A DNA stretch of 54,190 nucleotides from Verrucomicrobiota bacterium (GCA_038745205.1 JBCDLR010000001.1:1-54190), one strand, 5' to 3'. Positions 15,810 through 53,668 are shown, counted from the stretch's first letter. Numbers and translations are program-made. Notes: generated from the sequence alone by a model not told the origin.

Positions 15810-15857
15810 AAAATTTATGGAAATAATAACATTTAATAGAGTCGTTTCAACTCTTTG

Positions 15858-16823
15858 ATGGCGAGAGACCGAGAATCCCCGGGGAAAACCAGCGATTTTC
15901 TTTGCAACGACGGGCCTTGGGGGAATTCGTGCCCGGTGGCGGAATCATTCCTTAAAATCGGGCTGGTACAGTCGAAGTCGATGGGCAGCGTCGAGGCGAA
16001 TCTGGCCCTCGCTGAATCCAGTATCGAGGTCGCGGCGGAGCGGGGCGCACGCGTGGTCTGTCTCCAGGAGCTTTTTGCCTCCGCCTATTTCTGCCAAGAA
16101 GAAGACGAGGCGTGGTTCGAGCTCGCAGAGCCCATTCCCGGACCGACCACCCAAGCCATGCAGCGCTGCGCCAGAAAGTTGGGAATTGTCCTCATCGTCC
16201 CCGTTTTTGAGAAGCGCGCCCCCGGGGTGTATCACAATTCCGCCGTCGTCATCGACGCAGATGGGACAATTCTTGGGACCTACCGGAAAATGCACATTCC
16301 TGACGATCCCGGGTTTTACGAAAAGTATTATTTCGCGCCGGGTGACTTGGGCTTCAAGACCTGGACGACGTCAGCGGGAAAGATCGGCGTTCTGATTTGC
16401 TGGGACCAATGGTTTCCCGAAGCCGCGCGCCTCACCGCGATGCAGGGAGCCGGCATTCTCTTTTACCCGACCGCTATCGGGTGGCTTCCGTCCGAAAAGG
16501 AATCCCTGGGCCAGGCGCAAGTCGCCAGTTGGGAAACCTCCATGCGGGGACATGCCATCGCGAACGGATGTTTCGTCGCCGCGGTGAACCGCACCGGACA
16601 CGAAGCACCTGCGGGCGGTGAGGGAATTGAATTCTGGGGGCAATCATTCGTGGCAAATCCTCAAGGGGAGGTCATCGCTTCGGCCGGCACAGTCGAAGAA
16701 GAGGTGTTGGTCGTCGACATTGATCTGCAGCAGGTCGAAGCCCAGCGAAAAGCCTGGCCCTTTTTCCGCGATCGACGCATCGATGCCTACGAAGAACTCA
16801 CCAAACGCTGGACCGATTCATGA
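15858..16823 (+). CDS. aguB: N-carbamoylputrescine amidase (carbon-nitrogen hydrolase family)
   Basis: Nitrilase-superfamily Glu-Lys-Cys triad contexts are CLQELF, YRKMHIP and LICWDQWFPE. The gene is immediately followed by, and overlaps, agmatine deiminase. The start is uncertain: ATG at 15858, or an in-frame GTG at 15936 closer to the conserved core (LKIGLVQ). Confidence 0.85.
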   Translation: MARDRESPGKTSDFLCNDGPWGNSCPVAESFLKIGLVQSKSMGSVEANLALAESSIEVAAERGARVVCLQELFASAYFCQEEDEAWFELAEPIPGPTTQAMQRCARKLGIVLIVPVFEKRAPGVYHNSAVVIDADGTILGTYRKMHIPDDPGFYEKYYFAPGDLGFKTWTTSAGKIGVLICWDQWFPEAARLTAMQGAGILFYPTAIGWLPSEKESLGQAQVASWETSMRGHAIANGCFVAAVNRTGHEAPAGGEGIEFWGQSFVANPQGEVIASAGTVEEEVLVVDIDLQQVEAQRKAWPFFRDRRIDAYEELTKRWTDS

Positions 16824-17821
16824 CGTCGCGACGCCGATGGCCCGCAGAGTGGGAGACTCACACGGCAACATGGCTCAGTTGGCCCCACCGCAAATGCCTA
16901 TCCTGGTCGGGCGAAGGCATCCATCGTATCCGGCCCACGATGCTCGCCCTCGCCGAGACACTCGCCGAAGTCGAAAATGTCCACATCAACATCACCAATG
17001 ATGAGGAGAGGCAGTTCATCGAGGCCAACATTCGGAGCGAGCTTCGCGGAAAACTCCGCCTTTTTGACATCGCCACCAATGATCCATGGTGCCGCGACCA
17101 TGGGCCAACCTTCTTGTGGAATGGCGAGGGTCTACGGGAAGGGATTTGCTGGCAGTTCAATTCATGGGGCCAGAAATACGGCCCATGGAAAGACGACGCC
17201 CTTGCCAGCAACCGGATGGTCAAAGCTCTGAATTGCGACGCCATTGAGAGCCCCCTCGTATTCGAGCCGGGAGGACTTGAAGGAAACGGCCACGGCCTCG
17301 CGCTCGTCTCGGAACGCAGCGTGATCCATCCGATGCGAAATCCCGGAAAGGCGAGGGACGAAGTCGAACGGGAACTACGTGAAAACTTGTCCCTCGATAC
17401 CCTCATTTGGGTCGATGCCATGATCGAGGGTGACGACACCGATGGTCACGTCGATAACTTTGCCCGTTTTGCCTCCCGTAACACGCTCCTCGTCACGAAA
17501 GAGGGATTGGCGGCAAACCCCCAACTGGGGAAACTGGACCTCGAAATTCGTCTTCTCCCGGAACCGGCGAAAAAAGTCATCGTCGACGGAAAAACCTGTC
17601 CTGCGAGCTACGCGAATTTCTACATTGCCAATGAGAAGGTCATCGTTCCAAGCTTTCAGGATGCCGAGGACGACAGAGCCGCAAGATTGCTCGAAGAGAG
17701 TTTTCCCGACCGGATGATTCAGAGTCTGGACAGCAGGGAATTACTCTGGGGGCATGGTGGCATCCATTGCATCACCCAGCAGGTCCTTCCGCCAACTGCT
17801 CAGGAAAGCCGTGACTTGTAG
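16820..17821 (+). CDS. aguA: Agmatine deiminase
   Basis: 333-aa ORF with PAEWETHTATWLSWPH, DPWCRDHGP, GDDTDGHVDNFARF and the C-terminal catalytic-Cys motif GGIHCITQQ. ATGA overlap with aguB. Confidence 0.9.
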   Translation: MTSRRRWPAEWETHTATWLSWPHRKCLSWSGEGIHRIRPTMLALAETLAEVENVHINITNDEERQFIEANIRSELRGKLRLFDIATNDPWCRDHGPTFLWNGEGLREGICWQFNSWGQKYGPWKDDALASNRMVKALNCDAIESPLVFEPGGLEGNGHGLALVSERSVIHPMRNPGKARDEVERELRENLSLDTLIWVDAMIEGDDTDGHVDNFARFASRNTLLVTKEGLAANPQLGKLDLEIRLLPEPAKKVIVDGKTCPASYANFYIANEKVIVPSFQDAEDDRAARLLEESFPDRMIQSLDSRELLWGHGGIHCITQQVLPPTAQESRDL

Positions 17822-18951
17822 TCTTCGTAGAAGAACTCCCGGACAATCTCCAATTCCCTCTCATTTTCATCCCAGGTCGCTATGGCTGGCAGGGGAATTC
17901 CATTAAAGGTGGTGTTCTTCACCATCGTGTAGTGGGCCATATCGGTGAAGCAAATCCTGTCACCGGGTATCAAAGGCTCCGCAAACGTATAAGTTCCAAT
18001 CTGATCCCCCGCCAGGCATGAGGGACCACCCAGCCGGGCGGTCCAGCCTTCCGAGTCTCCACGAGTCGCCCCGACAATCTCAGGCACGTAGGGCATCTCG
18101 AGCACATCGGGCATGTGCGCTGTCGCGGAGGCGTCAAGGATGGCGATTGGACCGTCATTATCAATGATATCGATCACCGTCGCCACGAGCCAACCCGCAT
18201 CAAGAGCCACGGCCTCTCCCGGTTCGAGAAACACCTGAACGTCATAGCGGTCCCGGACCCTCGCGATCAACTCGCACAAGTGCCCGACATCATAATCATC
18301 CCGCGTGATATGATGCCCCCCACCGAGGTTCATCCATTTGAGATCTCCAAGCCATTGACCGAACCCTTCCTCGACGGCAGCGAGCACCTTTTCCAAGGCC
18401 GCGCTATCCTGCTGGCAAAGGGCATGAAATGAAACGCCGTGGATCCCCGCGAGGTCTCCTGCTTCTATCTCATTCGCCCTGATTCCCAAGCGCGAACCCG
18501 GAGCACATGGGTCATAGAGAGGGCTGGGGGAACTCGATTGCTCCGGATTCACACGAAATCCCGGTGACACGTTTGATTCCTCCACCCTTCGGCGAAATGC
18601 TCTCCACTGGTTGATTGAATTGAATGAGATATGGTCACTGCGGTCAAGAATTGCCTTGAACTCCTCGTCCTTGAAGGCCGGCGAAAAAGTGTGGACCAGC
18701 CCCCCGAACTCTTCTCTCCCGAGAATTGCCTCATGCAGTCCACTGGCACAAACCCCATCCAGATACGGCCGCAAGAGCGGGAAAGTCGAGAAGGCCCCAT
18801 ACGCTTTCAAGGCAAGAAGGATCTTTGCGCCCGTCCTTCTTCGTACGTCCGCCAGTACTTCCGCATTTCCTTGTAGCTTCGTCAGACTAATAACGTAGCA
18901 GGGAGACGGAAGAGCATTGGGATCAAATCCCCCGGGGAACCCCTCTCTCAT
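17800..18951 (-). CDS. nspC: Carboxynorspermidine/carboxyspermidine decarboxylase
   Basis: 383-aa ORF with a PLP-dependent alanine-racemase-fold decarboxylase layout (PSPCYVISL..., ILLALKAYG, NLGGGHHIT, LEPGEAV, CLAGD). It sits directly downstream of the dehydrogenase with an ATGA overlap. Confidence 0.85.
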   Translation of the reverse strand: MREGFPGGFDPNALPSPCYVISLTKLQGNAEVLADVRRRTGAKILLALKAYGAFSTFPLLRPYLDGVCASGLHEAILGREEFGGLVHTFSPAFKDEEFKAILDRSDHISFNSINQWRAFRRRVEESNVSPGFRVNPEQSSSPSPLYDPCAPGSRLGIRANEIEAGDLAGIHGVSFHALCQQDSAALEKVLAAVEEGFGQWLGDLKWMNLGGGHHITRDDYDVGHLCELIARVRDRYDVQVFLEPGEAVALDAGWLVATVIDIIDNDGPIAILDASATAHMPDVLEMPYVPEIVGATRGDSEGWTARLGGPSCLAGDQIGTYTFAEPLIPGDRICFTDMAHYTMVKNTTFNGIPLPAIATWDENERELEIVREFFYEDYKSRLS

Positions 18952-20141
18952 TGCTCGACAAACACGTCTTCGTCCTCATGCCATGGCAAACCCAATTCCT
19001 CCATGTTCGCAAGAAACGGATCAGGATCGAATTGCTCGACATTGTAAACCCCGGGTTTTTTCCAGACACCGGTCGCCATCAATTTGGCGCCCACGGTCGC
19101 AGGAACCCCTGTCGTATAGGAGATGGCCTGAGCTCCCACTTCCCGATAGCAAGCCTCGTGGTCGCAGACATTATAGACCCGGCGAACCCGCTCCTCTCCG
19201 TTAGTCGAGCCCCGCACTTCGCACCCGATCCAGGTCTTTCCTTTCGTCTCCGCCCCCAGATGACCCGGCTCGGGAAGAACCGCCTTCAAGAATTGGAGAG
19301 GTACGATCTCCACGCCCTCGTAGTCGATCGCCTCGATGCTCGTCATCCCCACCCCTTCAAGGACCCGGAGATGCGTGAGATACTCGTCGGAGAAAGTCAT
19401 GAAAAACCGCATGCGCTCAATCCCGTCCAGATTTCTCGCCAGCGTCTCCAGTTCTTCATGATAGATCAGGTAGAGTCTTTTCTCACCAATTCCTTCGCCG
19501 AAATCATAGGATACCGAGTTACTGAAAGCAGGAATGGTATGCCAACGTCCATCTTCGAAGTATCTCCCGTCCTGTGTCACTTCCCTGATATTGATCTCGG
19601 GATTGAAATTGGTCGCAAACGGCCTCCCGTGATCGCCCGCGTTACAGTCCAGAATATCGATGGTCCTGATTTTCTCGATGTGGTGTTTCCTCACGTGCGC
19701 GATAAAAACACTTACAGCGCCCGGATCGAACCCGCATCCAAGGAGCGCCATCAGGCCCGCATCCGCAAAACGATCATGATAACTCCATTGCCATTCATAG
19801 GAAAACCGGGCCTCTTCCGGAGGCTCATAGCAAGCGGTATCAAGATAGTGCACTCCCGCCTCGAGGCAGGCATCCATAATTGGAAGATCCTGGTATGGCA
19901 GTGCGACATTCACAACGAGATCGGGGCGGAAGTCACGAAAAAGGGACAACACCTCGCCGGTCCTGTCCGCATCCACCTTCGCCGTCGCCACCTCTCCATC
20001 GCACTGTCGCGCAATTGCCTTGCACTTGGATTCCGTCCGGCTCGCCAGGCAAATATCGGGAAAAACATCCCGCAACCCCGCACATTTTCTGGCCACAACG
20101 TTCCCCACACCGCCCGCGCCAATGATGAGCAGACGACTCAT
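18948..20141 (-). CDS. Carboxynorspermidine/carboxyspermidine dehydrogenase (saccharopine dehydrogenase family)
   Basis: 397-aa ORF with the Rossmann motif LLIIGAGGVGNVV. The length and position between speA and the decarboxylase are typical of the alternative spermidine pathway. Confidence 0.8.
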   Translation of the reverse strand: MSRLLIIGAGGVGNVVARKCAGLRDVFPDICLASRTESKCKAIARQCDGEVATAKVDADRTGEVLSLFRDFRPDLVVNVALPYQDLPIMDACLEAGVHYLDTACYEPPEEARFSYEWQWSYHDRFADAGLMALLGCGFDPGAVSVFIAHVRKHHIEKIRTIDILDCNAGDHGRPFATNFNPEINIREVTQDGRYFEDGRWHTIPAFSNSVSYDFGEGIGEKRLYLIYHEELETLARNLDGIERMRFFMTFSDEYLTHLRVLEGVGMTSIEAIDYEGVEIVPLQFLKAVLPEPGHLGAETKGKTWIGCEVRGSTNGEERVRRVYNVCDHEACYREVGAQAISYTTGVPATVGAKLMATGVWKKPGVYNVEQFDPDPFLANMEELGLPWHEDEDVFVEQ

Positions 20142-22063
20142 GATTTTCTCAAATAAGTGTAATCCTTCAAACTCTTGTCATACTCCGAGTTCATGGACTC
20201 CCCCTCTTCCGAAGAGATTAACCCCCGCTCAGCCGCCTTTTCCGTCAAAACCCCGAACTTCTCACGGAGCCCCTCCAGATCATATTCGAGGAACTCGAGA
20301 ACATCGTCCGAACTGTCCCCCCGGACGATTTTACTGAAGACCGTTTCTCCCGCGACGTTTTCCACGCTCGCGACGTGTGTCAATCCGAACAAATTGTGCA
20401 TATCACCAAGGGTTTCCTGGTAAGCCCCGACGAGAAAAGCCCCCATCAGGTAATTCTCTCCCGGTTCCAATTCGTGGACGGGCAGAAAGTCACTTTCGTC
20501 CTTCGGATGAATGTAAGTCTTGATCTTGCCATCACTGTCACAAGTCAGGTCCGCAATGACTCCCTGCCTGGTCGGTTGCTCATCGAGTCGGCGAAGTGGA
20601 ATGACGGGGAAAAACTGTCCCAGCGCCCAGTGGTCCGGAAGGGACTGGAAGACCGAGAAGTTGGCGTATAGGAAGTCACTCTGCCCAATTGTCGGCTGAA
20701 GTGCCGCCATGGCATGATTCTCGACGGCCGCCCCTTTGGCCAGGCGTTGCGCACCATAGAAAAATCGATCCGCCAAACCGCACTCCCGGAGTGTCAGCTC
20801 ACCGTCCGCAAAGCGGTTCCGCGCTTCCTTGCGGAGGGAGGCTAGCGACGTGACGACAGTCCGCGCATTTTCTTCCGAGATGGAGCGGAACTGTCTCTGC
20901 ATCTCCGCAAGCAAGTCATCCGAATCCGCGGGAAGTTCATCCGGCGTCTGGCTCTCATCAAATTGAGAGACTTCGAGGATATTAAAGACAAGGACGGAGT
21001 AGTGGGCGGCGACTCCCCGCCCGCACTCGGTCACGATAACGGGATGTTCCACGTTCTCCCGGTCGAGAATCTCCTTCAGGGAATCGACCACGGCCGCGCA
21101 GTATTCTTCGACTTCGTAGTTCATGCTGTTGCTGGATACCGTCTGCGAGCCGTCGTAATCCACCGCGAGACCGCCGCCGGTATTCATGAAAGCCATGGCC
21201 GCACCCTCCCTCTTCAGTTCGGCAAACACACGCGCCGCTTCCTTAGCCGCCGAGCGCACTCCGCTCAATCCTGCAATCTGGGACCCCTGGTGATAATGCA
21301 GCATTTGCAGGCAATCGAGGGCTCCCTCCTCACGAAGAAAGTCGACGACTTCAAGAATCTGTGAGGTGTTCAATCCGAAAAGCCCCTTGTCACCGCTCGT
21401 GCTTCCCCACCGGCCGGTTGCCTCGAGACCCAGCCGCAACCGCAAGCCGAGAACAGGCACAATCTTCATTTCTGTGGCGACTTTCATGATCGTCTTCAGT
21501 TCGCCAGGCATTTCGACGACGATGACCACCTGCAGACCAGCCTTCAGGCCGGAAAGAGCGAGCCGGATGTAGGCTTCATCCTTGTAACCGTTACAGATCA
21601 GGAACGCCTTGGGATCGGCAAGATGAGCCAGGGCAACGGTTAGCTCCGTGCGACTGCCAACCTCGAGGCCGTAGTGATACTTTGCCGCCGCCCCCGCCAT
21701 TTCCTCGATCACCTCTGCACGCTGATTGACCTTGATGGGAAAAACCCCGCGATAGACGTTCTTGTATCCGGCAACTTCAATGGCCTTTTCGAAGCCAAGG
21801 TGAATCTTCTCCAGACGAGACCGCAGGAGAGAGGGAAAGCGCAGGAGAACGGGGGTCTGTATTCCCTCCTTCTCCAATCCACTTACCATGCTCGACAAGC
21901 TGAACTCTTTCGTTGCCCCGTTTTCCGCATCCGTCAGGTCTACCGTGACCTCCCCCTTTTCTGATATGCGAAAATATCCGTCGCCCCAGTTCTTCAGGCG
22001 GTAGATTCCTTCGGACGATTCAGGATTCCAAGTGGCGGAGGAGGCAGATACCGACCGTGACAT
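20138..22063 (-). CDS. speA: Biosynthetic arginine decarboxylase
   Basis: 641-aa ORF. N-terminus YRLKNWGDGYFRISEKGEV, PLP-lysine context FPIKVNQ, and GGGLAVDYDG. The size is typical of SpeA. Confidence 0.9.
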   Translation of the reverse strand: MSRSVSASSATWNPESSEGIYRLKNWGDGYFRISEKGEVTVDLTDAENGATKEFSLSSMVSGLEKEGIQTPVLLRFPSLLRSRLEKIHLGFEKAIEVAGYKNVYRGVFPIKVNQRAEVIEEMAGAAAKYHYGLEVGSRTELTVALAHLADPKAFLICNGYKDEAYIRLALSGLKAGLQVVIVVEMPGELKTIMKVATEMKIVPVLGLRLRLGLEATGRWGSTSGDKGLFGLNTSQILEVVDFLREEGALDCLQMLHYHQGSQIAGLSGVRSAAKEAARVFAELKREGAAMAFMNTGGGLAVDYDGSQTVSSNSMNYEVEEYCAAVVDSLKEILDRENVEHPVIVTECGRGVAAHYSVLVFNILEVSQFDESQTPDELPADSDDLLAEMQRQFRSISEENARTVVTSLASLRKEARNRFADGELTLRECGLADRFFYGAQRLAKGAAVENHAMAALQPTIGQSDFLYANFSVFQSLPDHWALGQFFPVIPLRRLDEQPTRQGVIADLTCDSDGKIKTYIHPKDESDFLPVHELEPGENYLMGAFLVGAYQETLGDMHNLFGLTHVASVENVAGETVFSKIVRGDSSDDVLEFLEYDLEGLREKFGVLTEKAAERGLISSEEGESMNSEYDKSLKDYTYLRKS

Positions 22064-22116
22064 TCGGGCTATCGAGTAGGGACGTGATGATGAGGTTTGC
22101 TGGAACGAATATAACC

Positions 22117-23139
22117 TTAATGACCAAGGACGTAGTGGAAAAGTAGCGGGGCAACGATGGTCGCATCGGACTCAATGACGAATTGAGGCGTGTCGATGGA
22201 GAGTTTTCCCCAGGAAATTTTTTCGTTGGGCACCGCGCCGGAATAGGAACCGTAGCTCGTCGTGGAATCCGAGATCTGGCAGTAATACGACCACAGGGGC
22301 ACATCCGGAACATCCGCATCCTGGGTGAGCATGGGCACCACGCATATCGGGAAGTCTCCCGCGATCCCTCCCCCGATTTGGAAGAAGCCGATCGGTTTCT
22401 CGGTGGAAACCCTCATGTAGTAGTCAGCGAGTTCAAGGAAATACTCCATACCGCCCTTGACGCTGAGCGGAGACTTGAGGCGCTTATCGTAGACGCAGGC
22501 TGCGTAAATGTTCCCGAGGCTCGAATCTTCCCATCCCGGGACAAAAATCGGGAGATTTTTCTGGGCCGCGGCGAGGAGCCAGCTGTGGCTTGGATCCACC
22601 TCGTAATGCTCCTCCAGGCTACCGGAGAGGAGAAGTTCATACAGAAACTCATGGGGAAACCGGCGATCTCCGGACGTTTCCGCTTCCTGCCAGAGCGGGA
22701 TGATCTTGTCCTCAATCTTGTCCATGGCGTCGTCTTCCGGAATGCAGGTGTCGGTGACGCGATTCATTTTCCGCTCAAGAAGGGCCAGTTCGTCCTCGGG
22801 CGTCAGGTCACGGTAGTTGGAAACTCGTTCATACTTGGAATGCGCCACCAGGTTGAATACATCTTCTTCGATGTTCGCGCCCGTGCAGCAAATCGCATGC
22901 AGCTTGTCTTCCCTGATCATTTCCGCGAGCGAAATGCCCAGCTCGGCAGTGCTCATGGCCCCGGCCATGGCCAAAAACATCTGGCCCCCATTTTCGATAT
23001 GCCCGCGATACCCTCGCGCCGCGTCACGCAGCGACGCCGCATTGAAGTGCCGATAATGGTGTTCGATGAAATCCGAAACAGTCTTGATTCCAGACTGATT
23101 CGAAGTTTCGCCGGTAATTTGGTTTATTGAGTGCAGCAT
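22117..23139 (-). CDS. Deoxyhypusine synthase-like protein (candidate homospermidine synthase)
   Basis: ATG at 23139 (MLHSINQ...); the ORF-track start at 23184 is TTG. DHS-family segments are AMAGAMSTAELG, CCTGANIEEDV and GGGIAGDFP. ISWGK (nt 22204-22218) matches my recollection of the eukaryotic DHS catalytic-lysine motif VSWGK. Confidence 0.75.
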   Translation of the reverse strand: MLHSINQITGETSNQSGIKTVSDFIEHHYRHFNAASLRDAARGYRGHIENGGQMFLAMAGAMSTAELGISLAEMIREDKLHAICCTGANIEEDVFNLVAHSKYERVSNYRDLTPEDELALLERKMNRVTDTCIPEDDAMDKIEDKIIPLWQEAETSGDRRFPHEFLYELLLSGSLEEHYEVDPSHSWLLAAAQKNLPIFVPGWEDSSLGNIYAACVYDKRLKSPLSVKGGMEYFLELADYYMRVSTEKPIGFFQIGGGIAGDFPICVVPMLTQDADVPDVPLWSYYCQISDSTTSYGSYSGAVPNEKISWGKLSIDTPQFVIESDATIVAPLLFHYVLGH

Positions 23140-23277
23140 AATAGGGGTGAAATCAGGAACTTCACTCCTCCCGGCTGCGAACAAGCGCGTGGTGGTCCAG
23201 CTGCAAGGTAAGGGTTTTTGGATATTTTGCCAATGGAATCTGCGAGTTTTCTAGTAATTGCAGAGAGGAGCTCCGAC

Positions 23278-24636
23278 TCAATTTTCTAGCAATTCCAGCA
23301 TTTTCCAACGCCCGCTGCGCCAACGTCCCCAGAAAACCAGCCCCTGAAGAGCCAAATAGACGCCGGCGACGAGCCAGACACCCACCGAGCCAGAGCCCGG
23401 GGAAAACTGCACGACCAACCTACCACCAAGAACGAGCACCACGAGTGTGAGCACCAAGTTGGCAATCGCCGGCCAAACCGTGTCCCCCACCCCCTGCAGG
23501 GCATTGACGAAGACCACGGTCATGGCGTCGAACCACTGGATCAGCGCCAGAACAAGCAGGCAACGAGACCCAATTTCGATGATCTGCGGATCTGACGTGA
23601 ACAGTCCCATGATCGGTTCCCGAAAGATGAAGAAAAGGAGCGCCGTGAAGAGCGAATACAGGGAGAGCCCTTTGAAGGTTTCTCTCACCCCCCTTTGGGC
23701 CTGCCTGAATTTTTGCGCTCCGACGGACTTGGCAACGTGCATGGAAAGAGCAATCCCGAGACCATCGGCAGGCATGTAGGAGAGCTGCATGCATCGAAGA
23801 ACGACCGTCGTCGCAGCCACATGTTCCACGCCGAAAAAACCAACGAGCCACAAGATGACCACCCCCCAGGATGCGAGATCGAGAGCTTCCTGAAACCCCG
23901 ATGGAAGTCCAATCGCGGCCATCTTGCGGAGAGAGACGGAAGATGGCACAGCCTGCAGGGTTCCATACTGGTTTCGATTGGTGGCATTGAGAAAGAAGAG
24001 CAAAAAGTACAAGAACTGGGCACCAATTCCAATGACGGTTCCCCAGGCGATTCCCGAAAGCCCCATCGGCGCCAGCCCGAGCCATCCAAATGAAAGTGAG
24101 AGACTGGCAAGAGCATTGATCCCCACGGCCACCGCCGCTGAAATGAGGGGTAACCAGGGTCGCCTCGTCGCGACCGCAAACATCGCCATTGCGTCCACCG
24201 CCATCTCCAGTCCCACCGCATAAATCGAAATGCGGAAATAGTCGACCTGGAGTGGGAAAACCTCGGGTGCACTGTTGAAAAACTGCCCGAAGAGGACCGG
24301 TGCGGTCGGGATCAGTGTCAGGCAGGCCAATCCGAAAGCGAGCCCCATCCAGATTCCCTGCCACGCAAACTTTCCGCAGTCTTCATTCCGACCCGCGCCG
24401 AAGGCTTGCCCCAAAAAGGCGCTCACCGCGCCCATGACGCCGAGCCCGAAGGTCACGAGCACGAGGATCATCATCGAAGCTGGCCCCAGTGCCGCCAGCG
24501 AGACCTCGCCAAGCCTCCCGGCAATTAGGGCGTCCACCACGTGAATCAGCGTCACCGAATACTGTGTCGCAATCAGGGGTCCCGCCGTTTTGAGCAAACT
24601 CGAGAAGGAACCTTGGGATCGCTTGATATTAGCCAC
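23278..24636 (-). CDS. MATE-family efflux transporter
   Basis: 452-aa ORF with about 12 hydrophobic segments. It has a MATE-type N-terminus (LLKTAGPLIATQYSVTLIHVVDALIAGRLG) and an internal duplication pattern. Confidence 0.8.
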   Translation of the reverse strand: MANIKRSQGSFSSLLKTAGPLIATQYSVTLIHVVDALIAGRLGEVSLAALGPASMMILVLVTFGLGVMGAVSAFLGQAFGAGRNEDCGKFAWQGIWMGLAFGLACLTLIPTAPVLFGQFFNSAPEVFPLQVDYFRISIYAVGLEMAVDAMAMFAVATRRPWLPLISAAVAVGINALASLSLSFGWLGLAPMGLSGIAWGTVIGIGAQFLYFLLFFLNATNRNQYGTLQAVPSSVSLRKMAAIGLPSGFQEALDLASWGVVILWLVGFFGVEHVAATTVVLRCMQLSYMPADGLGIALSMHVAKSVGAQKFRQAQRGVRETFKGLSLYSLFTALLFFIFREPIMGLFTSDPQIIEIGSRCLLVLALIQWFDAMTVVFVNALQGVGDTVWPAIANLVLTLVVLVLGGRLVVQFSPGSGSVGVWLVAGVYLALQGLVFWGRWRSGRWKMLELLEN

Positions 24637-24675
24637 GGAAGCTCAGGGACGGCCGCCCGGTCTCGCCGAGAGACG

Positions 24676-24774
24676 TTGAAAATTCAATAAATCGAACCTT
24701 TAAGATCGTTGAGGAACAGGGCTCCGAAAGCCGAATTTACATCAAAGATAAATAAAAATATTGATTTAATCAAT
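24676..24774. promoter_or_regulatory. Two related palindromes in the AT-rich divergent region between the MATE operon and the PotD-like gene
   Basis: TTGAA-aa-TTCAA at 24676-24687 and ATTGAT-tta-ATCAAT at 24760-24774. Both fit TTGA-N4/5-TCAAT. The segment 24733-24797 is conspicuously AT-rich in an otherwise GC-rich window. Confidence 0.35.
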
Positions 24775-24797
24775 TTTTCATATTTATTAGAATTATT

Positions 24798-25988
24798 ATG
24801 AAAGCTCTCCCCAGCTCATTTCTTTCAAAATCACGGGTTCTCGTCGGCGCCGTAGTGGCTTCGGTCTTTGCACTTTTGACATCCTGCGGGAACCAATCGG
24901 AAATCTCGGCCACCGGGGACAATCCAGGGAAAGAGAGTACGGTTGGGGAAACGATCGTCCTCTACTCTTGGAGCGAGTATTTCAGCGAAGATCTCCTCGC
25001 CGAGTTCACGGAGCGTACCGGAATCAGCATCGACTACCAGGAGTTCGACAATACAGACAAGCTTCAGGAGATTTTAAAATCTTCACCAGGCCGCTACGAC
25101 GTGGTCGTCATCGACGACGTCACGATTCGCTCTCTCGTGGATGCCCGGCTGGTCCGTGAACTTGATCTCAGCCGTCTCCCGAATTTCTCGAACATTGACG
25201 TCCGCTACCTGACGGAGGAGACGGGCAAGGACGGAAACAAGTCCTTCGGCGTTCCTTATCTTTGGGGAACGACTCTCGTGGCCTATCGCACCGACAAACT
25301 TGAAGACCCGGACAATTCTTGGAATCTCATCTTCAATCGCACCAAGGAGGGTGAGGCCATTGTCCTCGGAGAGCGTATCGAGTGCTATCCCGCCGCACTC
25401 TATGCCCTCGGCCTCGATCCCAACAGCCAGAATCGCGACGACCTCACCGAGGTCACCAACCTTCTTTCCGACGTCGCCTCCAAGGGAACGATTCGGTTCG
25501 GATCTGACGATGACGTCATGGACGCGATGGTGGATGGCACCGCCACTGTCGCCATGCTCTACTCTGGTGATGCGGCTCTTCTCGCCGATGAGGAACACCC
25601 GGTTGATTTCTTTATCCCTCGTGAAGGCGCCATGCTCTGGACCGACAACTTCGTCATCCCCCGTGACTCAGAGAAATCGGATGCTGCCTATGAATTCATC
25701 AATTTCATGCTGGAAGCGGACTCCGCCGTCGCCAGCTCGGAGGAAGTCTGGTATGCCACGCCAAACAAATTGGCTCTGGACCTCCTCGACCCTGAACTTC
25801 GCGAGGACGAGCGCATCTTTCCTCCAAAGGAAGTCCTCGACCGTTGTCAGTTCATCCATTCCTGGAACGAAAATACCGAACGTCTTGTCAACAACGGCTG
25901 GACGCGTGTGCAACGTGCCTATTTGAAGAAGGAAACCGCCTCCGAGCCGGTGGCCCGGACGACCGAATCGGTGGAGGTCGCCGACTGA
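24798..25988 (+). CDS. PotD/PotF-like polyamine-binding lipoprotein with no cognate ABC transporter genes nearby
   Basis: 396-aa ORF with a lipobox (FALLTSCGN). PotD-type segments are VLYSWSEYF, LPNFSNIDV, VPYLWGTT and GAMLWTDNFVIP. Confidence 0.8.
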   Translation: MKALPSSFLSKSRVLVGAVVASVFALLTSCGNQSEISATGDNPGKESTVGETIVLYSWSEYFSEDLLAEFTERTGISIDYQEFDNTDKLQEILKSSPGRYDVVVIDDVTIRSLVDARLVRELDLSRLPNFSNIDVRYLTEETGKDGNKSFGVPYLWGTTLVAYRTDKLEDPDNSWNLIFNRTKEGEAIVLGERIECYPAALYALGLDPNSQNRDDLTEVTNLLSDVASKGTIRFGSDDDVMDAMVDGTATVAMLYSGDAALLADEEHPVDFFIPREGAMLWTDNFVIPRDSEKSDAAYEFINFMLEADSAVASSEEVWYATPNKLALDLLDPELREDERIFPPKEVLDRCQFIHSWNENTERLVNNGWTRVQRAYLKKETASEPVARTTESVEVAD

Positions 25989-26024
25989 TTCTCCCCCGCC
26001 GCAGCAACCGCGGCCCTATCCGTC

Positions 26025-28745
26025 ATGAGGCCAGCCCGCGCCATCCTCAGTTCGATCAGACTACGGGTTTTGCTGGCCTTCCTCCTTGTTGGCACTCTCC
26101 CCGTAATCACGCTCTTCTTCGTCGCAAGAAATCTGACGGCCAACGCCATCATCAACTCAGAGTATGAGAAGATTTCGGAAGTCAGCAATGAACTGGCCCG
26201 ACAGATCAAGATGATTGTCGAGAACGCGTCGAACGACATCGCGTCCCTCGCCTCCAGCCCGGTTCTTGTCGACCCCGACCAGACGATCCCCGCGAAGAAA
26301 GCGGAGTTCAACCGGCTCGTGAAGCTCTACGAGAACTTCTACGACATCACCCTTCTCGACAACCACGGTTTCCCCATTGTCTCCAGCAACGAAGAGCACG
26401 CCGGGAGGCGGGACCAGACTTCGTGGTTCGATGTCGCACTCTCCGGAGAAAGCTACGTTTCCCGACCCGAAATTTTCCATCCCCGGGCCGACGGCGAAGC
26501 CGAAAGGAGGATCGGGCTCTTCTTCACGATCTATCTTCCGGTCACGAAGGAGGGAACCAGCGCCCCGAACCTCGTCATCAAGGGCCGCGTCCGCTTCGAC
26601 AAGGTCTGGTCACTGCTGGACGAAGCGGGAGTTGGCGCCACGGGCTCCTTCACGCTGATTGACGATTTCGCCAATCTCCTCTCGCACAAGGACAAGTCCC
26701 GCATCCTCACCAAATTCGACAGCCGCTACCCCGACCGCGCCGCCATGCTTGCCCTCGCCGAAAACAACCGGGGGATCTACGGGACGACCGAAGGAATGCC
26801 TTTCATCTACACGGCGAAAACGATCTCTCCGACGAGCACGGATGATCGCCGCTGGTTCCTCGTCGGCCTTAAATCAAAGGAAGAAGCCCACGCCCCGGTT
26901 GCGGAGATGACCAATTATCACCTTGTTGGAGTCGCCGTAACGCTCGGCGTTGCTCTCGGCCTCGGCCTTCTTCTCGCAAACCGGCTCAGTTCCCCCATCA
27001 TCCAGGCCTCACAGGCAGCCAAGCGCATTTCCGATGGAGAACTGGACGTTCGTATTCCCGCCAAAGGGTCCGTCGAGAACGTCGACCTCGCCAATTCGTT
27101 CAACCAGATGATCGACGAGGTTCGCGAACACCGCTTCGAACTCGAGCTCTTGGTCGATTCCCGAACACGTCGCCTCAAGCGTTCGCAGGAAGACCTTGAA
27201 GACCTCTCCGCGCAGCTGAAGGCCGCCTATGAGTCCGTCCAAGACGGCATCGCCGTCATTCGGAATGATGGAACGATTCTCACCGCGAACGGGAACCTCC
27301 GCGAATTCTTCGGCCTCGACGAAAACGTGACCAACCTTTCCGTCGATCTATTTCGGGACACGCTCGTGGACTGCTTTGAAAGTGGGAAGCGATTTGAGAA
27401 GCTCTGGAATACCGCCGAAGTCAAGGAAGACGCGGTGATCGAGCGGGAGCTTGATCTCAAAAACCCGGTGCCCCGAAATCTCGACATTTACTCCGCACCC
27501 GTCCGCAACAAGTCAGGGAAGGTGATCGCCCGCGTCTGGATGTTCCGCGACATCACGGAGCAAAAACAGCTTCAGCTCAGCCTGCAACAGGCCCAGAAGA
27601 TGGAAGCCATCGGACGCCTCGCCGGGGGAGTTGCCCACGACTTCAACAACCTCCTTACCGGCATCATCGGCAACCTCCAGCTTGCGCAACTGGGGAATGC
27701 CAAGGGCACCTCCGAGGAGGGGCAATTCATCGAATCCGCAAAGAAGGCCGGGCAGCGCGCTGCGGAGCTGGTCAAGCAACTCCTTGGATTTTCGCGGCGG
27801 ACCCACCTCGAATTGCAATTCACCAACGCCAACGAGGTTATCTCGGACGTCGAGAAGCTCCTCACCGCGTCCTTTGATCCCCGCATTCAGATCGAAGTCC
27901 ACCCCTCCGACGACCTCTGGGGTGTGAAGATTGACCCCACGCAGATGGAACAGGTTGTCATGAACATGTGCGTCAACGCCAAGGACGCAATGCCCGAGGG
28001 GGGAAGACTACGGCTCAGCACGCAAAACCAGGCTCTGACCGAGAGAGACGCGTCCGCCATGACGGGGGCACGCTCGGGCGACTTCATCATCATTTCCGTG
28101 GAAGACAACGGCGAGGGAATCCCGCCAGAGGTCATGGAAAAGATCTTTGAGCCGTTCTTCACAACCAAGGAACAAGGCAAAGGCACCGGGTTGGGCTTGG
28201 CGACATCCTACGGCATCGTCCAACAGCACGGAGGATGGATCAGTTGCGAATCCCTGTCCGGCGAGGGGACGACCTTCCGCATCTACCTGCCCAAGCAGGA
28301 GAAAAAGGCGGATTCCGGCCATCCCCGCAACCGAGAGAAGGACGTCCGGGGTGGAGACGAAACCGTTCTCCTTGTCGATGATGAAGCGGTCGTCCGCGCT
28401 GTCGCGGAGGGAGCGCTCAAGCACCATGGCTACAGGATTCTCTCCGCCTCCGACGGCCAGGAGGCCCTCGATATCCTTTCGGAACCCGAGCACAAGGTGG
28501 ACCTCGTCCTCCTCGACCTGACCATGCCTCGTCTCTCCGGCCGGGAAACCCTCAAGGTCATCCGCGAGGACCACGGAGACTTGCCGGTGGTCGTCTGCAG
28601 TGGATTCCTCGTTGACCTCGATGGCTTCGAGGAAGAGACCGGACTGCGCGCCAACGGCTTCGTGCAGAAGCCCTACAACCTGAAAGCCCTCGCCGGAAAA
28701 GTCCGCGACATCCTCGACGAATCCGCCCTCGTCGTCGCCGGCTAG
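26025..28745 (+). CDS. Hybrid sensor histidine kinase (TM, Cache-like extracytoplasmic domain, TM, HAMP, PAS, HisKA, HATPase, receiver)
   Basis: 906-aa ORF. TM1 is at about aa 12-34 and TM2 is [20 protein letters not shown], with ~265 aa between them. HAMP ([14 protein letters not shown]...NQMIDEV), H-box [12 protein letters not shown]-boxes EDNGEGIP and GTGLGLA, and receiver VLLVDDE...[10 protein letters not shown]. Confidence 0.9.
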
Positions 28746-32662: not shown

Positions 32663-33107
32663 AGCCGTCCTCGAGGAGATCGAGCACGTGCTCGAATCCC
32701 GCCGCTCCGCCGTAGTACGGATCAGGCACCTCTTCCGCCTCGTGTTCAGTCACAAACTCACAAAAGCGGCGCACAACGGCCTTTCCATCCTGCCCTCCCC
32801 GTCCGCGCTCGATGTCGGCGAAGTTATCGTCGTCCATCGTGAGAATGAGGTCGAAGTCGGAAAAGTCCCCGGCATGAAACTGACGGGCCGCTCCCTCCAC
32901 GGAGATGCCCCGCGCCTTCGCCGCTTTCCGCATCCGCGCATCCGGGGAATTCCCCGCGTGGTAACCGATGGTTCCCGCGGAATCACATTCGATCCTTTCC
33001 CCCATCCCCTCCGCTTGCGCCGTCGCCCGCAGAACACACTCCCCGGCCGGCGAACGGCAAATATTGCCCATGCAGACAAAGAGAATCCGGTAGGGCCCGT
33101 TCGCCAT
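32607..33107 (-). CDS. Low-molecular-weight protein tyrosine phosphatase
   Basis: ATG at 33107 gives MANGPYRILFVCMGNICRSP, the C-x5-R-S P-loop at the family-typical distance from the N-terminus. The Asp loop is VPDPYYGG. The longer start at 33191 was rejected. Confidence 0.85.
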   Translation of the reverse strand: MANGPYRILFVCMGNICRSPAGECVLRATAQAEGMGERIECDSAGTIGYHAGNSPDARMRKAAKARGISVEGAARQFHAGDFSDFDLILTMDDDNFADIERGRGGQDGKAVVRRFCEFVTEHEAEEVPDPYYGGAAGFEHVLDLLEDGCAEIVRRIKENKDVGNSA

Positions 33108-33189
33108 GCCTTCCCGTAATCGCGGCCCCGCGAAATGCAACAAGTTGCGGGCCGCCCCATCCCGTCGTATCTCTCGGTCCATCTTTTCC

Positions 33190-34491
33190 ATGCACGCTTT
33201 CAGCTACAGAGACGGAACACTGCACTGCGAATCCGTCGACCTTGATTCCCTCGCCCGCGAACACGGAACGCCCCTGTATGTCTACAGCAAGGCCACGCTA
33301 CTTGACCACTACCGCCGACTCGATTCCGCGCTTTGGAACATCGATCACATGATTTGCTACGCGGTAAAGGCCAATTCCAACCTCGCCATCCTCGACCTTT
33401 TCGCCGATGAGCAATCGGGCTTCGACATCGTCTCCGGCGGCGAACTCTACCGCGTCATCAAAGCCGGCGGCGACGCGGCGAAATGCACCTTCGCAGGTGT
33501 CGGTAAGACCCGGCCTGAGATCGAATACGCCCTCGACCAGGGGATCTACAGCTTCAACGTCGAATCCGAGGCGGAACTCCGCTTCATCAACCAGGTCGCA
33601 GGGGAAATGAAGCGCAAGGCGCCCGTGGCCGTCCGCGTAAACCCGAATGTGGACGCCGGAACCCACGCCTACATCTCAACCGGCAAGAAAGAAGACAAAT
33701 TCGGCATCGATTTTGACCAGATCGAGGACCTCTACGCACGCGCCGCGCAGGAACTGCCGCACGTCCAGCTCCGCGGGATCCAGATGCACATCGGCTCACA
33801 GCTCACGCGCATCGGACCGTTCGTCGAGGCAACGAAGAAAGTTGCCCCGCTCGCGGCCAAGCTGAAGGCGGATCACGGCATCGAGTTTTTCAGCATCGGC
33901 GGTGGCATTGGCATCGTTTACCAGAACGCCCTCAACAGCGGCCACGAATCCTGGTGGCACGAAATGGACGACATCGAGCAAATCACCATCGACCACTACG
34001 CGGAGTCACTCCTCCCCATCCTCGAGCCGCTCGACATGAAAATTCTTCTCGAGCCCGGTCGCTTCATCTCCGGGAACGCCGGAGCCCTCATCACGGAAAA
34101 ACTCTACGAAAAAAAGGGCGCAGCCAAGACCTTTGAGATCATTGATGCCGGCATGAGCGAACTGATCCGGCCCGCCTTGTACTCCGGTCACCATGACATC
34201 ATTCCGGTCGCGGAACCCGAGGAAGAGACGCCGAACCGCATCGTCGATATCGTCGGCCCCATCTGCGAGAGCGGCGATTTCTTCGCCAAGGACCGCGAGC
34301 TTCCGGTCATGAAGCAGGGGGACCTCCTCGCCGTCCTCAGCGCCGGAGCCTACGGCTTCGTCATGGCGTCGAACTACAACTCACGCCCCTTCCCCGCCGA
34401 AGTCCTCGTCGATGGCAGCCATGCCCAGGTCGTCCGGAAGCGCCAAAGCTGGGACGACCTCATCGCCGGCGAAATCGCGCCAGCGATCTGA
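33190..34491 (+). CDS. lysA: Diaminopimelate decarboxylase
   Basis: ATG at 33190 gives MHAFSYRDGTLHCESVDLDSLAREHGTPLYVYS. Also present are CYAVKAN (PLP Lys), GGGIGIVY, EPGRFISG and CESGD. Confidence 0.9.
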   Translation: MHAFSYRDGTLHCESVDLDSLAREHGTPLYVYSKATLLDHYRRLDSALWNIDHMICYAVKANSNLAILDLFADEQSGFDIVSGGELYRVIKAGGDAAKCTFAGVGKTRPEIEYALDQGIYSFNVESEAELRFINQVAGEMKRKAPVAVRVNPNVDAGTHAYISTGKKEDKFGIDFDQIEDLYARAAQELPHVQLRGIQMHIGSQLTRIGPFVEATKKVAPLAAKLKADHGIEFFSIGGGIGIVYQNALNSGHESWWHEMDDIEQITIDHYAESLLPILEPLDMKILLEPGRFISGNAGALITEKLYEKKGAAKTFEIIDAGMSELIRPALYSGHHDIIPVAEPEEETPNRIVDIVGPICESGDFFAKDRELPVMKQGDLLAVLSAGAYGFVMASNYNSRPFPAEVLVDGSHAQVVRKRQSWDDLIAGEIAPAI

Positions 34492-48944: not shown

Positions 48945-49619
48945 GTGCCGAATCGCCTTCTCCGGAGGGAAGAGATTGGGTGCAATTCAGCGGCTTGCGG
49001 CGATAATCCTGAGGTTACTTCCCAGAACGAGCAGTTGAAAGGCCCATCCCATGATAAGGGAGAGGAGCTGGCATCCGACAGCCCGCCACCTCCCGCGAAA
49101 TCGGACGATCTCTTCCAAAGCGTCTACGACGAGCTCACGAAACTTGCGAGTCTGCGGGTCGCCAGCGAGGGAGCTGGCGCGACTCTCAGTGCAACCTCCC
49201 TGGTCCATGAGGTGTTTCTTCGACTTTCGTCCGACAACGAAAAGATGAGCCGTTTTCGCAATACCGCTCACCTTTTTGCGACGGCCTCGGAGGTGATGCG
49301 CTGGGTGCTTGTCGACCGGGCGAGAGCACGCAAGCGGCAAAAGCGAGGGGGAGAATTCGAACGAATCCAGCTTTCCGAATCCCAAATCGTGTCGAGCGTG
49401 GATGACGATTTGATTCTCTCGGTCCATGAGGTTCTTGACACACTGCAAAAGGAAGACCCGGAGACGGCCGATCTCGTCAAGATGAGGTTCTTCTCGGGAT
49501 TCTCGTTCCAGGAGATCGCCGATGCCACCGATGTTTCCTACCGGACCGTGACGAGACGATGGACATACGCCAAGGCTTGGTTGAAGGAAGAGTTGAAGAA
49601 GGACCTCTCGGTCGAATGA
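48945..49619 (+). CDS. ECF-type sigma-70 family factor (Planctomycete/Verrucomicrobial ECF subfamily often linked to Ser/Thr kinases)
   Basis: Region 2 is LFQSVYDELTKLASLR...TSLVHEVFLRL. Region 4 HTH is FFSGFSFQEIADATDVSYRTVTRRWTYAKAWL. The start is uncertain: GTG at 48945, an in-frame TTG at 49035, and no in-frame ATG before the conserved core. Confidence 0.8.
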   Translation: MPNRLLRREEIGCNSAACGDNPEVTSQNEQLKGPSHDKGEELASDSPPPPAKSDDLFQSVYDELTKLASLRVASEGAGATLSATSLVHEVFLRLSSDNEKMSRFRNTAHLFATASEVMRWVLVDRARARKRQKRGGEFERIQLSESQIVSSVDDDLILSVHEVLDTLQKEDPETADLVKMRFFSGFSFQEIADATDVSYRTVTRRWTYAKAWLKEELKKDLSVE

Positions 49620-53039: not shown

Positions 53040-53668
53040 CAGTTTGCCCACCTGAAGGAAAGCGTTATTCAGCAGCGAACTTCGCCATCTTCGCGAAAAA
53101 AATTCCGAGGCCGGCTGCCGTTTCAGGAACGGGTGGCTTCGATGGAATCACGGGCCGATCGGCCTTCGTTGCAAATTCGGACCACTGATTTCCGGGAGTC
53201 TCGCCTCCATGGTCGTTTGAACAACGAATTATTTTTTCCCACCGCCATGTCCGACTCTCGAAGGAAAGAGCGCTTTGGCATCATGGAATGGCCCAACAAA
53301 ATTTCCGTCTGATTTGCAACGACTGCTTTCCTTCCCGGGATGAATCCTGCCGCGCTGTCTTTAAGAGCGGCACGCTGTCACTCCGCCGCCAAGCGGAGCT
53401 TGGATACCTGAGGGTCGCTAAGGATTCCCGATCCAACCTGACCGTGTCGCCGCGCTTCCACCACTTGAAGAGGCCCATGCACCTTTGCCTCTGAACCAAC
53501 GCTCCCGGCTGCGCAGCTCTACCAACCGTTTCTCCTTATCCATTCAGAAATTCGCCAAATTCAAAACCCAAATTGGTCATGAACACGTCTGCCGAACCTT
53601 CCATTTCACCGATGCCGACCGGCTCAACATTCTCCTGGAGAATACAAACCTTGTGCCCCCACGACGTC

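Follow-up and report, generated by a model that had tools for sequence, protein, structure and literature searches.

Introduction

Nine sensor kinases are established to depend on a solute-binding protein (SBP), none of them on one of the PotD/PotF type (PMC8050422, Table 1), and the SBP and kinase genes adjoin in 10 of the 11 SBP–kinase couples that have been characterised (PMC8050422, PMC11113362). The only examples of signalling by polyamine SBPs listed there are PotD, which acts on the chemoreceptor Trg, and NspS, whose target is MbaA, a GGDEF–EAL protein with a dCache-like sensor (PMC8050422). NspS–MbaA pairs occur in fewer than 1.4% of complete proteobacterial genomes (PMC9993111). Here, we examine a 54,190-nt stretch of DNA from a Verrucomicrobiota bacterium (GCA_038745205.1, JBCDLR010000001.1:1-54190; hereafter, the window), in which positions 24,798 to 28,745 carry the gene of a PotD/PotF-like lipoprotein followed directly by that of a hybrid histidine kinase.

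To our knowledge, NspS–MbaA is the only well-understood bacterial polyamine receptor that works via a binding protein, and it governs cyclic di-GMP (c-di-GMP) in a few Proteobacteria. Polyamines are abundant as extracellular metabolites, and the Verrucomicrobiales include the Akkermansiaceae and many marine and freshwater lineages. An earlier note, made from the sequence of the window alone, had proposed that the lipoprotein feeds a polyamine signal to the kinase and that this wiring had not been characterised. In line with the latter statement, our literature searches found no description of a PotD-, PotF- or NspS-like protein wired to a histidine kinase, or of polyamine sensing in Verrucomicrobia. 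On balance, we favour the interpretation that the SBP–kinase pair is a co-receptor system by which a polyamine outside the cell is sensed.

Results

The SBP gene (24798..25988, + strand) encodes a solute-binding lipoprotein of 396 aa, which was assigned to the PotD/PotF type from its open reading frame (ORF), Pfam and NCBIfam searches, Protein Data Bank (PDB) matches, an AlphaFold2 (AF2) model searched with Foldseek and a conserved pocket. It begins with a signal peptide whose lipobox, LTSC, closes with Cys30 (codon 24885-24887), a residue retained in 39 of 40 aligned homologues. Residues ~50-376 make up the binding domain; in its mature form, the protein contains 72 D/E and 34 K/R. The Pfam SBP_bac_8 match (8.9e-29) is over the gathering score. 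The NCBIfam matches to PotF (8.7e-50) and PotD (7.3e-43) are both far under the equivalog cut-offs, and the protein is thus a member of the family and an orthologue of neither. The best PDB sequence matches were Lmo0810, PotF, SpuE/SpuD, VcPotD1 and PotD (1e-42 to 1e-51). When the AF2 model (pLDDT 88.5, pTM 0.82) was searched with Foldseek, ranks 1-30 were all polyamine-binding proteins (E 8e-33 to 6e-23, TMt 0.76-0.90), headed by PotF/D variants in complex with spermidine, and the γ-aminobutyrate (GABA) receptor Atu4243 came only at rank 47, with 18% identity. The model predicts a two-lobe fold that superposes on solved polyamine binders. In a neighbour-joining tree, the SBP clade forms a branch apart from PotD and PotF.

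The gene that encodes a hybrid sensor histidine kinase (906 aa; 26025..28745, + strand; identified from its ORF, Pfam domains and catalytic motifs) begins 36 nt 3′ of the SBP gene on the same strand and in the same frame, and we found no terminator-like site on the + strand between the two genes. The kinase has a continuous hydrophobic run at residues ~4-38, of which ~14-35 was taken as the first transmembrane segment (TM1), and another at 298-321 (TM2), with ~262 aa in the periplasm between them. This periplasmic part is a dCache_1 sensor domain (residues 36-297; 26130..26915; Pfam, AF2, Foldseek), which we propose as the docking site of the SBP. The Pfam dCache_1 (PF02743) match of the window kinase (1.3e-8) reaches 35.2 bits against a gathering score of 45 bits; orthologues and relatives pass the cut-off, at 51-62 bits and above. 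An AF2 model of residues 1-356 (pLDDT 78.7) opens with a long helix at the N-terminus, after which come two alpha/beta modules, and Foldseek matched it to the dCache ligand-binding domains of PscC, PctA/B/C and TlpA (E 1e-12 to 1e-10), so that the dCache fold of the periplasmic domain is confirmed at the level of the model.

The sensor is followed, on the + strand throughout, by a HAMP domain (residues 316-368; 26970..27128; Pfam HAMP 4.6e-11), a cytoplasmic PAS domain (residues 397-514; 27213..27566; PAS_4 2.8e-10), the kinase core (HisKA, residues 530-593, and HATPase_c, residues 637-758; 27612..28298; Pfam and motif positions) and a C-terminal receiver with no Hpt after it (residues 781-893; 28365..28703; Response_reg 5.3e-21 and motifs). 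The phospho-acceptor His538 (codon 27636-27638) lies in the H-box, with NMCVNA at 647, DNGEG at 694, FFTTK at 711 and GTGLGL at 720; the receiver has DD at ~786, Asp831 (codon 28515-28517) and Lys882. The best NCBIfam matches of the kinase core are CckA-type hybrid kinases, all under cut-off. Pfam detected neither an Hpt domain nor a stand-alone response regulator among window ORFs of at least 100 aa. The anatomy given in the earlier note agrees with these results in every respect: the two ORFs with their positions, lengths and spacing; the PotD/PotF layout, whose four quoted motifs all occur in the translation and which the hidden Markov model (HMM) search for SBP_bac_8, PotF and PotD bears out; the Cache-like, HAMP, PAS, H-box, HATPase and receiver domains; and the lack of a visible Hpt.

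We then addressed whether the pairing is conserved. Scanning of the SBP-clade alignment against one genome per species yielded 57 loci, nearly all from Verrucomicrobiales, Akkermansiaceae and related metagenome-assembled genomes; ORFs were called in all loci, within at most 10 kb to either side of the homologues, and searched with the window proteins. Of the Verrucomicrobial homologues with enough downstream DNA to be assessed (n=51), 49 have a gene for a dCache protein directly 3′ of the SBP gene on the same strand, mostly at a distance of -4 to +86 nt; the two exceptions are additional SBP copies, in L037 and L038, that stand alone. A potABC set adjoining the SBP gene was found in none of 61 loci by phmmer with a MalK query. 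These loci contain only three ABC ATPases, all 3-8 kb from the SBP gene and none PotA-like, one being of a 766-aa exporter type. The window itself has no ABC ATPase in any frame (motif scan; phmmer with MalK) and no ABC component recognisable by Pfam among its ORFs of at least 100 aa. The SBP is thus an orphan within the window, as the earlier note had stated, and the pairing looks like a hitherto uncharacterised polyamine-sensing arrangement across dozens of related genomes.

The module also occurs in variant forms. Some loci have two SBPs or two tandem SBP–kinase pairs (L001, L004), and others have a kinase form without PAS, followed by further hybrid kinases. A fused double PotD-like lipoprotein of 717-736 aa is encoded directly 5′ of the dCache kinase in nine loci (L019, L031, L033, L038, L043, L046, L047, L048 and L050; e.g. 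L043:9968-12145), and such a protein could read two ligands at once. In L051 and L052, the gene after the SBP (L051:11129-12151, L052:3300-4322) encodes a 340-aa dCache_1 protein without a kinase part, which is either a receptor cut short or a sensor that works on its own.

To examine the ligand pocket, we aligned the SBP with E. coli PotD and PotF. The alignment gives the published PotD/PotF residue numbers exactly (PMC8666671), which validates the sequences used and the mapping. The aromatic box of PotF, W37/W244/F276, corresponds to W58/Y255/W281 of the SBP. In the proximal pocket, S59/E60/D258 correspond to PotF S38/D39/D247, and in the distal pocket D106/E192/E195/D283 correspond to PotF S85/A182/E185/D278; in addition, Y61 matches PotF Y40, Y319 matches PotF Y314, and E192 matches PotD D168. 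Among 40 homologues, W58, E60, Y61, E195, Y255, D258, W281, D283 and Y319 are invariant or nearly so, and D106, D107 and E192 are also conserved. D106 and D107, at the positions of PotF S85 and A86, add acidic charge that has no counterpart in PotD or PotF, and no basic replacement was seen at the pocket positions. Beside the pocket acids, position 193 is a conserved Arg/Lys (33 of 40 sequences). None of the aromatic and acidic positions by which PotD/PotF bind polyamines has thus been lost from the pocket, which has extra acids besides.

The substitutions F276W and A182D are reported to move PotF toward spermidine (PMC8666671). The SBP has W281 and E192 at these two positions, and by analogy its pocket resembles the spermidine-preferring state of the engineered PotF. 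The contacts of NspS with norspermidine are W41, D70, D90, F131, Y233, D236, W261 and D263 (PMC9993111). At matching offsets the SBP has the identical residues W58, D87, D107, F150, Y255, D258, W281 and D283, a correspondence mapped by spacing only.

How far two SBPs have diverged closely follows the divergence of their periplasmic sensors: across 33 complete pairs, the pairwise identities correlate at r=0.92 (partial r 0.90 when controlling for the kinase core), compared with r=0.53 for the SBP and the kinase core of the same protein. Spearman coefficients are 0.78-0.82 for SBP and sensor versus 0.29-0.58 for all other pairings, the MATE control included. In L040, L045 and L049, the kinase core is 21-23% identical to that of the window; the SBP (32-37%) and the sensor (35-37%) are kept together. 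These comparisons support the view that the SBP partners the sensor domain rather than the kinase core.

The sensor domain can also be followed beyond the orthologous loci. A word-indexed homologue search with the sensor alone gave nothing useful. HMMER, run exhaustively with the periplasmic domain as query over 1.84 billion representative proteins, returned 193 relatives, 69 of them at E <=1e-10; so small a number among so many proteins marks a narrow dCache_1 subfamily. All of the best 64 relatives have dCache_1, and among these 64 HisKA was found in 47, a receiver in 33, GGDEF in 7, EAL in 5, and HD and Hpt in 1 each. When we inspected the genomic context of nine non-orthologous relatives, a PotD-type SBP gene lay immediately upstream on the same strand in eight. 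Their receptors include two of dCache–GGDEF–EAL architecture, as in MbaA, one dCache–HAMP–GGDEF–HD protein and several kinases with or without REC or Hpt; some of these distant members carry Hpt and/or an adjoining REC-only gene. The SBP is kept with the sensor whatever the output, and the conserved unit is accordingly a PotD-type SBP plus this type of dCache, the output being interchangeable. The earlier note had spoken of an SBP feeding a hybrid kinase: the pairing holds, but it is confined neither to the Verrucomicrobial lineage nor to hybrid kinases. The distant SBPs are ~30% identical to that of the window and form a separate branch in the neighbour-joining tree; since all SBP groups are ~30% identical to one another, we do not claim a single origin of the signalling SBPs. 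When a plasmid collection was searched by tblastn with sensor domains and a GGDEF–EAL-linked SBP, no usable annotated NspS–MbaA pair was found; the search gave weak matches, ordinary ABC operons and an SBP gene followed by an amidase gene.

Divergently from the SBP gene, the window encodes a MATE-family transporter (23278..24636, - strand; Pfam MatE 2.8e-43; TIGR00797 over cut-off). In 26 related loci a MATE gene likewise lies divergent from the SBP gene, at 64-362 nt, which makes it the most constant third partner of the module. Beyond it follow polyamine biosynthesis genes (17800..23184, - strand; Pfam, NCBIfam): a deoxyhypusine/homospermidine-synthase-like (DS-like) gene (22117-23184; Pfam, NCBIfam), speA (20138-22063; NCBIfam, over equivalog cut-off), the gene of a carboxy(nor)spermidine dehydrogenase (CANSDH; 18948-20141; Pfam, NCBIfam) and nspC, for carboxy(nor)spermidine decarboxylase (17800-18951; NCBIfam, over equivalog cut-off). 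This divergent order is as the earlier note gave it, and the cluster extends further, to a pair of CN_hydrolase and PAD_porph genes on the + strand (15855..17821; Pfam 1.2e-66, 1.2e-88) that resemble those of N-carbamoylputrescine amidase and agmatine deiminase (aguB/aguA-like). This pair fills the route from agmatine to putrescine, so that speA, the aguB/aguA-like pair, the DS-like gene and the carboxyspermidine genes together make up a full arginine-to-spermidine route in the window. The proposed link to biosynthetic genes stands as a recurrent feature, with speA nearby in seven related loci besides the window, but not as a universal one, the MATE gene being more constant. speA and/or the DS-like gene or CANSDH occur near the module in L009-11, 13, 15, 25, 29, 30, 41, 44 and 54.

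An Orn/DAP/Arg decarboxylase-family gene is also present in the window (33106-34491, + strand), where the polyamine pathway is unusually complete. Three NCBIfam models, one for homospermidine biosynthesis, one for deoxyhypusine synthase and one for 1,9-bis(guanidino)-5-aza-nonane synthase, match the DS-like protein about equally, each far under cut-off. L015, L025, L029 and L030 also have the DS-like/speA pair.

The MATE and SBP genes are separated by an AT-rich divergent intergenic region of 161 nt (24637..24797), which is presumably a shared control region. The SBP upstream regions of homologues are AT-rich too; the window genome has 57% GC. The spacer contains a perfect palindrome, ATTGATTTAATCAAT, at 24760-24774. 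Among 34 non-redundant SBP upstream regions, TTATGGT/ACCATAA occurs in 8 (0.9 expected) and TTTTTCA in 9 (2 expected). The palindrome or these motifs may act as an operator or promoter element, which we offer as a lead only. No sigma-70 consensus was found in the MATE/SBP spacer. A guanidine riboswitch class often precedes genes of MATE/SMR pumps; a riboswitch of this or another class in the spacer was discarded, as there was no Rfam family match.

Other genes accompany the module in related loci. SET-domain (PF00856) methyltransferase genes encoding 160-220 aa lie beside it in ~27 of them and are absent from the window (examples are L019:8478-8987(-), L025:8115-9329(-), L053:15468-16037(+) and L009:15396-16061(+)). 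SET genes are rare in bacteria, and the association is therefore unlikely to be due to chance. Where MATE is absent, the SET gene is divergent and directly upstream of the SBP gene; in a marine clade, it lies ~1.6 kb 3′ of the kinase gene, behind the gene of a 491-aa protein without a Pfam match. In six MATE-less loci, a membrane protein of 112-135 aa with weak DMT/SMR-type matches is encoded beside the SET gene upstream of the SBP gene (e.g. L025:9338-9682(-), L033:5212-5619(-), L050:8922-9314(-)), and this small cation-exporter-like gene seems to stand in for the MATE pump. In L017 (1995-3766, + strand) and 12 other marine loci, arginine-dihydrolase/DDAH-like and phosphatidylserine-decarboxylase-like genes lie beyond MATE and are kept in 11-13 loci, a further neighbour of the module with a link to arginine. 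Flavin amine-oxidase-like genes occur beside two SBP genes that stand without a kinase (see Discussion); a link to polyamine oxidase was dropped, as the NCBIfam matches are unspecific (protoporphyrinogen-oxidase-like). Unrelated to the module, the window encodes a protein of 1126 aa (49671-53051, - strand) in which a Ser/Thr protein kinase is joined to WD40 beta-propellers; an ECF sigma factor gene (48945-49619, + strand) lies beside it.

Discussion

Conserved pairing, a conserved pocket, co-divergence of SBP and sensor, and the SBP genes upstream of distant sensor relatives make the locus look like an NspS–MbaA-like two-gene sensory cassette coupled to a phosphorelay. The earlier note had listed as contrary outcomes that transporter genes routinely adjoin the SBP gene in related loci, that the pocket lacks polyamine-binding residues and that the adjacency is not conserved. 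All three were examined computationally, with the opposite result in each case, and the polyamine-sensing interpretation is supported as far as sequence analysis reaches. Conservation of the pairing, taken with the co-divergence, leads us to infer that SBP and kinase dock physically; the pocket and the gene context point to a polyamine as the ligand, for which a triamine (spermidine, norspermidine or homospermidine) would be the likeliest candidate.

We envisage the following mechanism. The lipoprotein, anchored through Cys30 in the periplasm, would hold a polyamine in its PotD/PotF-type cleft and, rather than passing it to an ABC importer, would dock in its liganded or free form on the dCache domain of the presumably co-transcribed kinase, much as NspS docks on MbaA and LuxP on LuxQ. 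Docking or release would move the transmembrane helices, and the signal would travel via TM2, HAMP and PAS to the DHp/CA core, where the relayed shift would change how far His538 autophosphorylation prevails over phosphatase activity; in which direction the kinase responds to the SBP or its ligand could so far only be inferred. The phosphoryl group would pass from His538 to Asp831 of the kinase's own receiver and on to an Hpt protein or response regulator whose gene lies elsewhere. Our guess is that the output includes the divergent MATE gene and the polyamine-synthesis genes; these would be the most plausible targets, with feedback or autocrine control of polyamine export and synthesis.

Several findings weigh against this interpretation. 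The main ground for caution comes from Pseudomonas aeruginosa, in which PotF-family SBPs encoded near AgtS/AruS bind GABA and 5-aminovalerate instead of polyamines, and no binding of these SBPs to the sensor domains of the kinases was seen (PMC11113362); adjacency alone is therefore no proof. Two SBP paralogues (L037, L038) stand solo, without a kinase. L005, the closest relative, has a kinase 87% identical to that of the window and an SBP only 49% identical; when L005:3-1109 is set against window positions 24798-25988, nucleotide similarity begins at 25605, within the final third of the SBP gene. Such a pattern is at odds with simple one-to-one co-evolution, and may reflect recombination with a paralogue, exchange of the greater part of the SBP gene or very rapid SBP evolution. 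Correlated divergence could also stem in part from both proteins being periplasmic and fast-evolving. The ABC survey covered the 54-kb window, and a potABC operon could lie elsewhere in the genome. As no Hpt or response regulator is encoded nearby, the output of the kinase is guesswork. Finally, dCache_1 domains are able to bind polyamines directly, so the kinase might need no co-receptor.

That last point suggests an alternative, in our view an unlikely one, in which the dCache domain of the kinase detects the ligand by itself, in its membrane-distal pocket, and the SBP makes no contact with the kinase and is only co-expressed, for instance as a periplasmic polyamine buffer or scavenger. Direct binding of polyamines or amines is on record for McpU, TlpQ and the dCache_1AM class (PMC10589655), and the sensor model resembles ligand-binding dCache domains such as those of PctA/B/C. 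The adjacent SBP and kinase of P. aeruginosa did not interact (PMC11113362), and the SBP of L005 has sharply diverged while its sensor has not. What direct sensing explains poorly is that the pairing of SBP and sensor outlasts replacement of the entire cytoplasmic part of the receptor, holding over histidine kinase, GGDEF–EAL and GGDEF–HD outputs in eight of the nine distant relatives. Such persistence is hard to account for if the sensor domain itself is not the partner of the SBP. The SBP also tracks the divergence of the sensor more tightly than does any other pair tested.

The SBP might instead be a kinase co-receptor for a non-classical ligand, such as agmatine, GABA, 5-aminovalerate or a modified (methylated or guanidino) polyamine. 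PotF-family proteins predicted to bind polyamines proved to bind GABA or 5-aminovalerate (PMC11113362), and PotF also binds agmatine (PDB 6ye6). The DS-like enzyme gives weak scores with the models for homospermidine synthase and for 1,9-bis(guanidino)-5-aza-nonane synthase alike, SET-domain methyltransferase genes accompany the module in many loci, and the conserved Arg/Lys at position 193 sits beside the pocket acids. Set against this are a pocket that is strongly and redundantly acidic, with no position turned basic, the placing of all polyamine binders far above Atu4243 in the structural ranking, and the identical counterparts, by spacing, of the eight norspermidine contacts of NspS (PMC9993111); we regard such a ligand as improbable. 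That the SBP is an ordinary transport component of a distant PotABC-type importer, with the kinase only regulating SBP expression, seems to us highly improbable. Orphan SBP genes that serve remote transporters are common, and our inspection took in 54 kb of this genome and 10 kb to either side of the homologues. A pot-type ATPase nevertheless adjoins the SBP gene in no locus, the SBP clade stands apart from the PotD and PotF branches, and the SBP gene stays with the sensor domain regardless of output. In nine loci, moreover, the SBP is fused into a double lipoprotein before the kinase, an arrangement that is not known for importer SBPs, although no search aimed at it was made.

If, as we favour, the SBP is a polyamine co-receptor of the kinase, our results suggest that the sensing principle of NspS–MbaA may also feed two-component phosphorelays in Verrucomicrobiales, in which we find ~50 similar loci. 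They further suggest that the narrow dCache_1 subfamily may be recognisable by sequence as binding-protein-dependent, which would give a ligand class for orphan receptors. A function would thereby be offered for orphan PotD-like proteins that are now annotated as ABC transporter components, and an SBP_bac_8 gene directly 5′ of this type of dCache can serve as a search rule for further cases. As a conserved neighbour of the module, the MATE transporter is a candidate for a polyamine exporter in bacteria; a literature search found no example of one from the MATE family. That the MATE protein exports the cation that is sensed is hypothetical. A more far-reaching idea, which we regard as doubtful, is that the whole locus is a make–export–sense circuit for a self-made polyamine serving as an autocrine or population-density signal in Verrucomicrobiales, with the PotD-type SBP and the dCache_1 subfamily as a portable receptor. 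In such a circuit, the speA, aguAB, carboxyspermidine and DS-like genes would synthesise the polyamine, the MATE protein would export it, and its level outside the cell would be read by the lipoprotein together with the dCache kinase. If true, this would be a polyamine receptor that can be plugged into phosphorelay, c-di-GMP or HD-GYP outputs.

Among known systems, LuxP–LuxQ, TorT–TorS, HptA–HptS, ChvE–VirA, CBP–ChiS, XylFII–LytS, AioX–AioS, BctC–BctE and GltB–GtrS follow the same logic, a periplasmic SBP, encoded beside the kinase, presenting the signal to the extracytoplasmic domain of the latter. LuxQ, HptS, VirA and ChiS also have dCache-like domains, and several of the known couples contain hybrid kinases (PMC8050422). 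Their signals differ, being autoinducer-2, trimethylamine N-oxide, sugars, sugar phosphates, chitin oligomers, arsenite and citrate (PMC8050422). With the transport proteins PotD/PotF, SpuD/SpuE and VcPotD1, the SBP has in common the fold, the aromatic box and the acidic residues, at 25-31% identity and TM-scores up to 0.9. Unlike them, it has no ABC permease or ATPase nearby (in the window and in 61 loci), and its gene is coupled to that of a signalling protein. As here, PotF-family SBP genes lie near sensor kinase genes in P. aeruginosa, PA0602 and AgtB near AgtS and PA4985 near AruS; PA0602 and PA4985 are orphans outside transporter operons, and AgtB is part of the agtABCD transporter operon. 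The P. aeruginosa SBP genes differ from that of the window in that they are not immediately upstream, in one operon, of a dedicated dCache subfamily, and one of the clusters has an ABC transporter.

The closest likeness is to NspS–MbaA of Vibrio cholerae and Sinorhizobium meliloti, in which the gene of a PotD-like periplasmic SBP likewise lies directly upstream of that of a dCache-like membrane receptor. NspS has no transport role, is co-transcribed with its receptor and conveys a polyamine signal; the SBP of the window is encoded without an adjoining transporter. The present system differs in its output, which is HisKA/HATPase_c plus a receiver rather than GGDEF–EAL control of c-di-GMP, in that its SBP is a lipoprotein, and in its lineage, the Verrucomicrobiales. 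Like the sensor of MbaA, however, relatives of the window sensor sit on GGDEF–EAL proteins with a PotD-type SBP encoded directly upstream, and the connection between the two systems therefore probably runs deeper than analogy.

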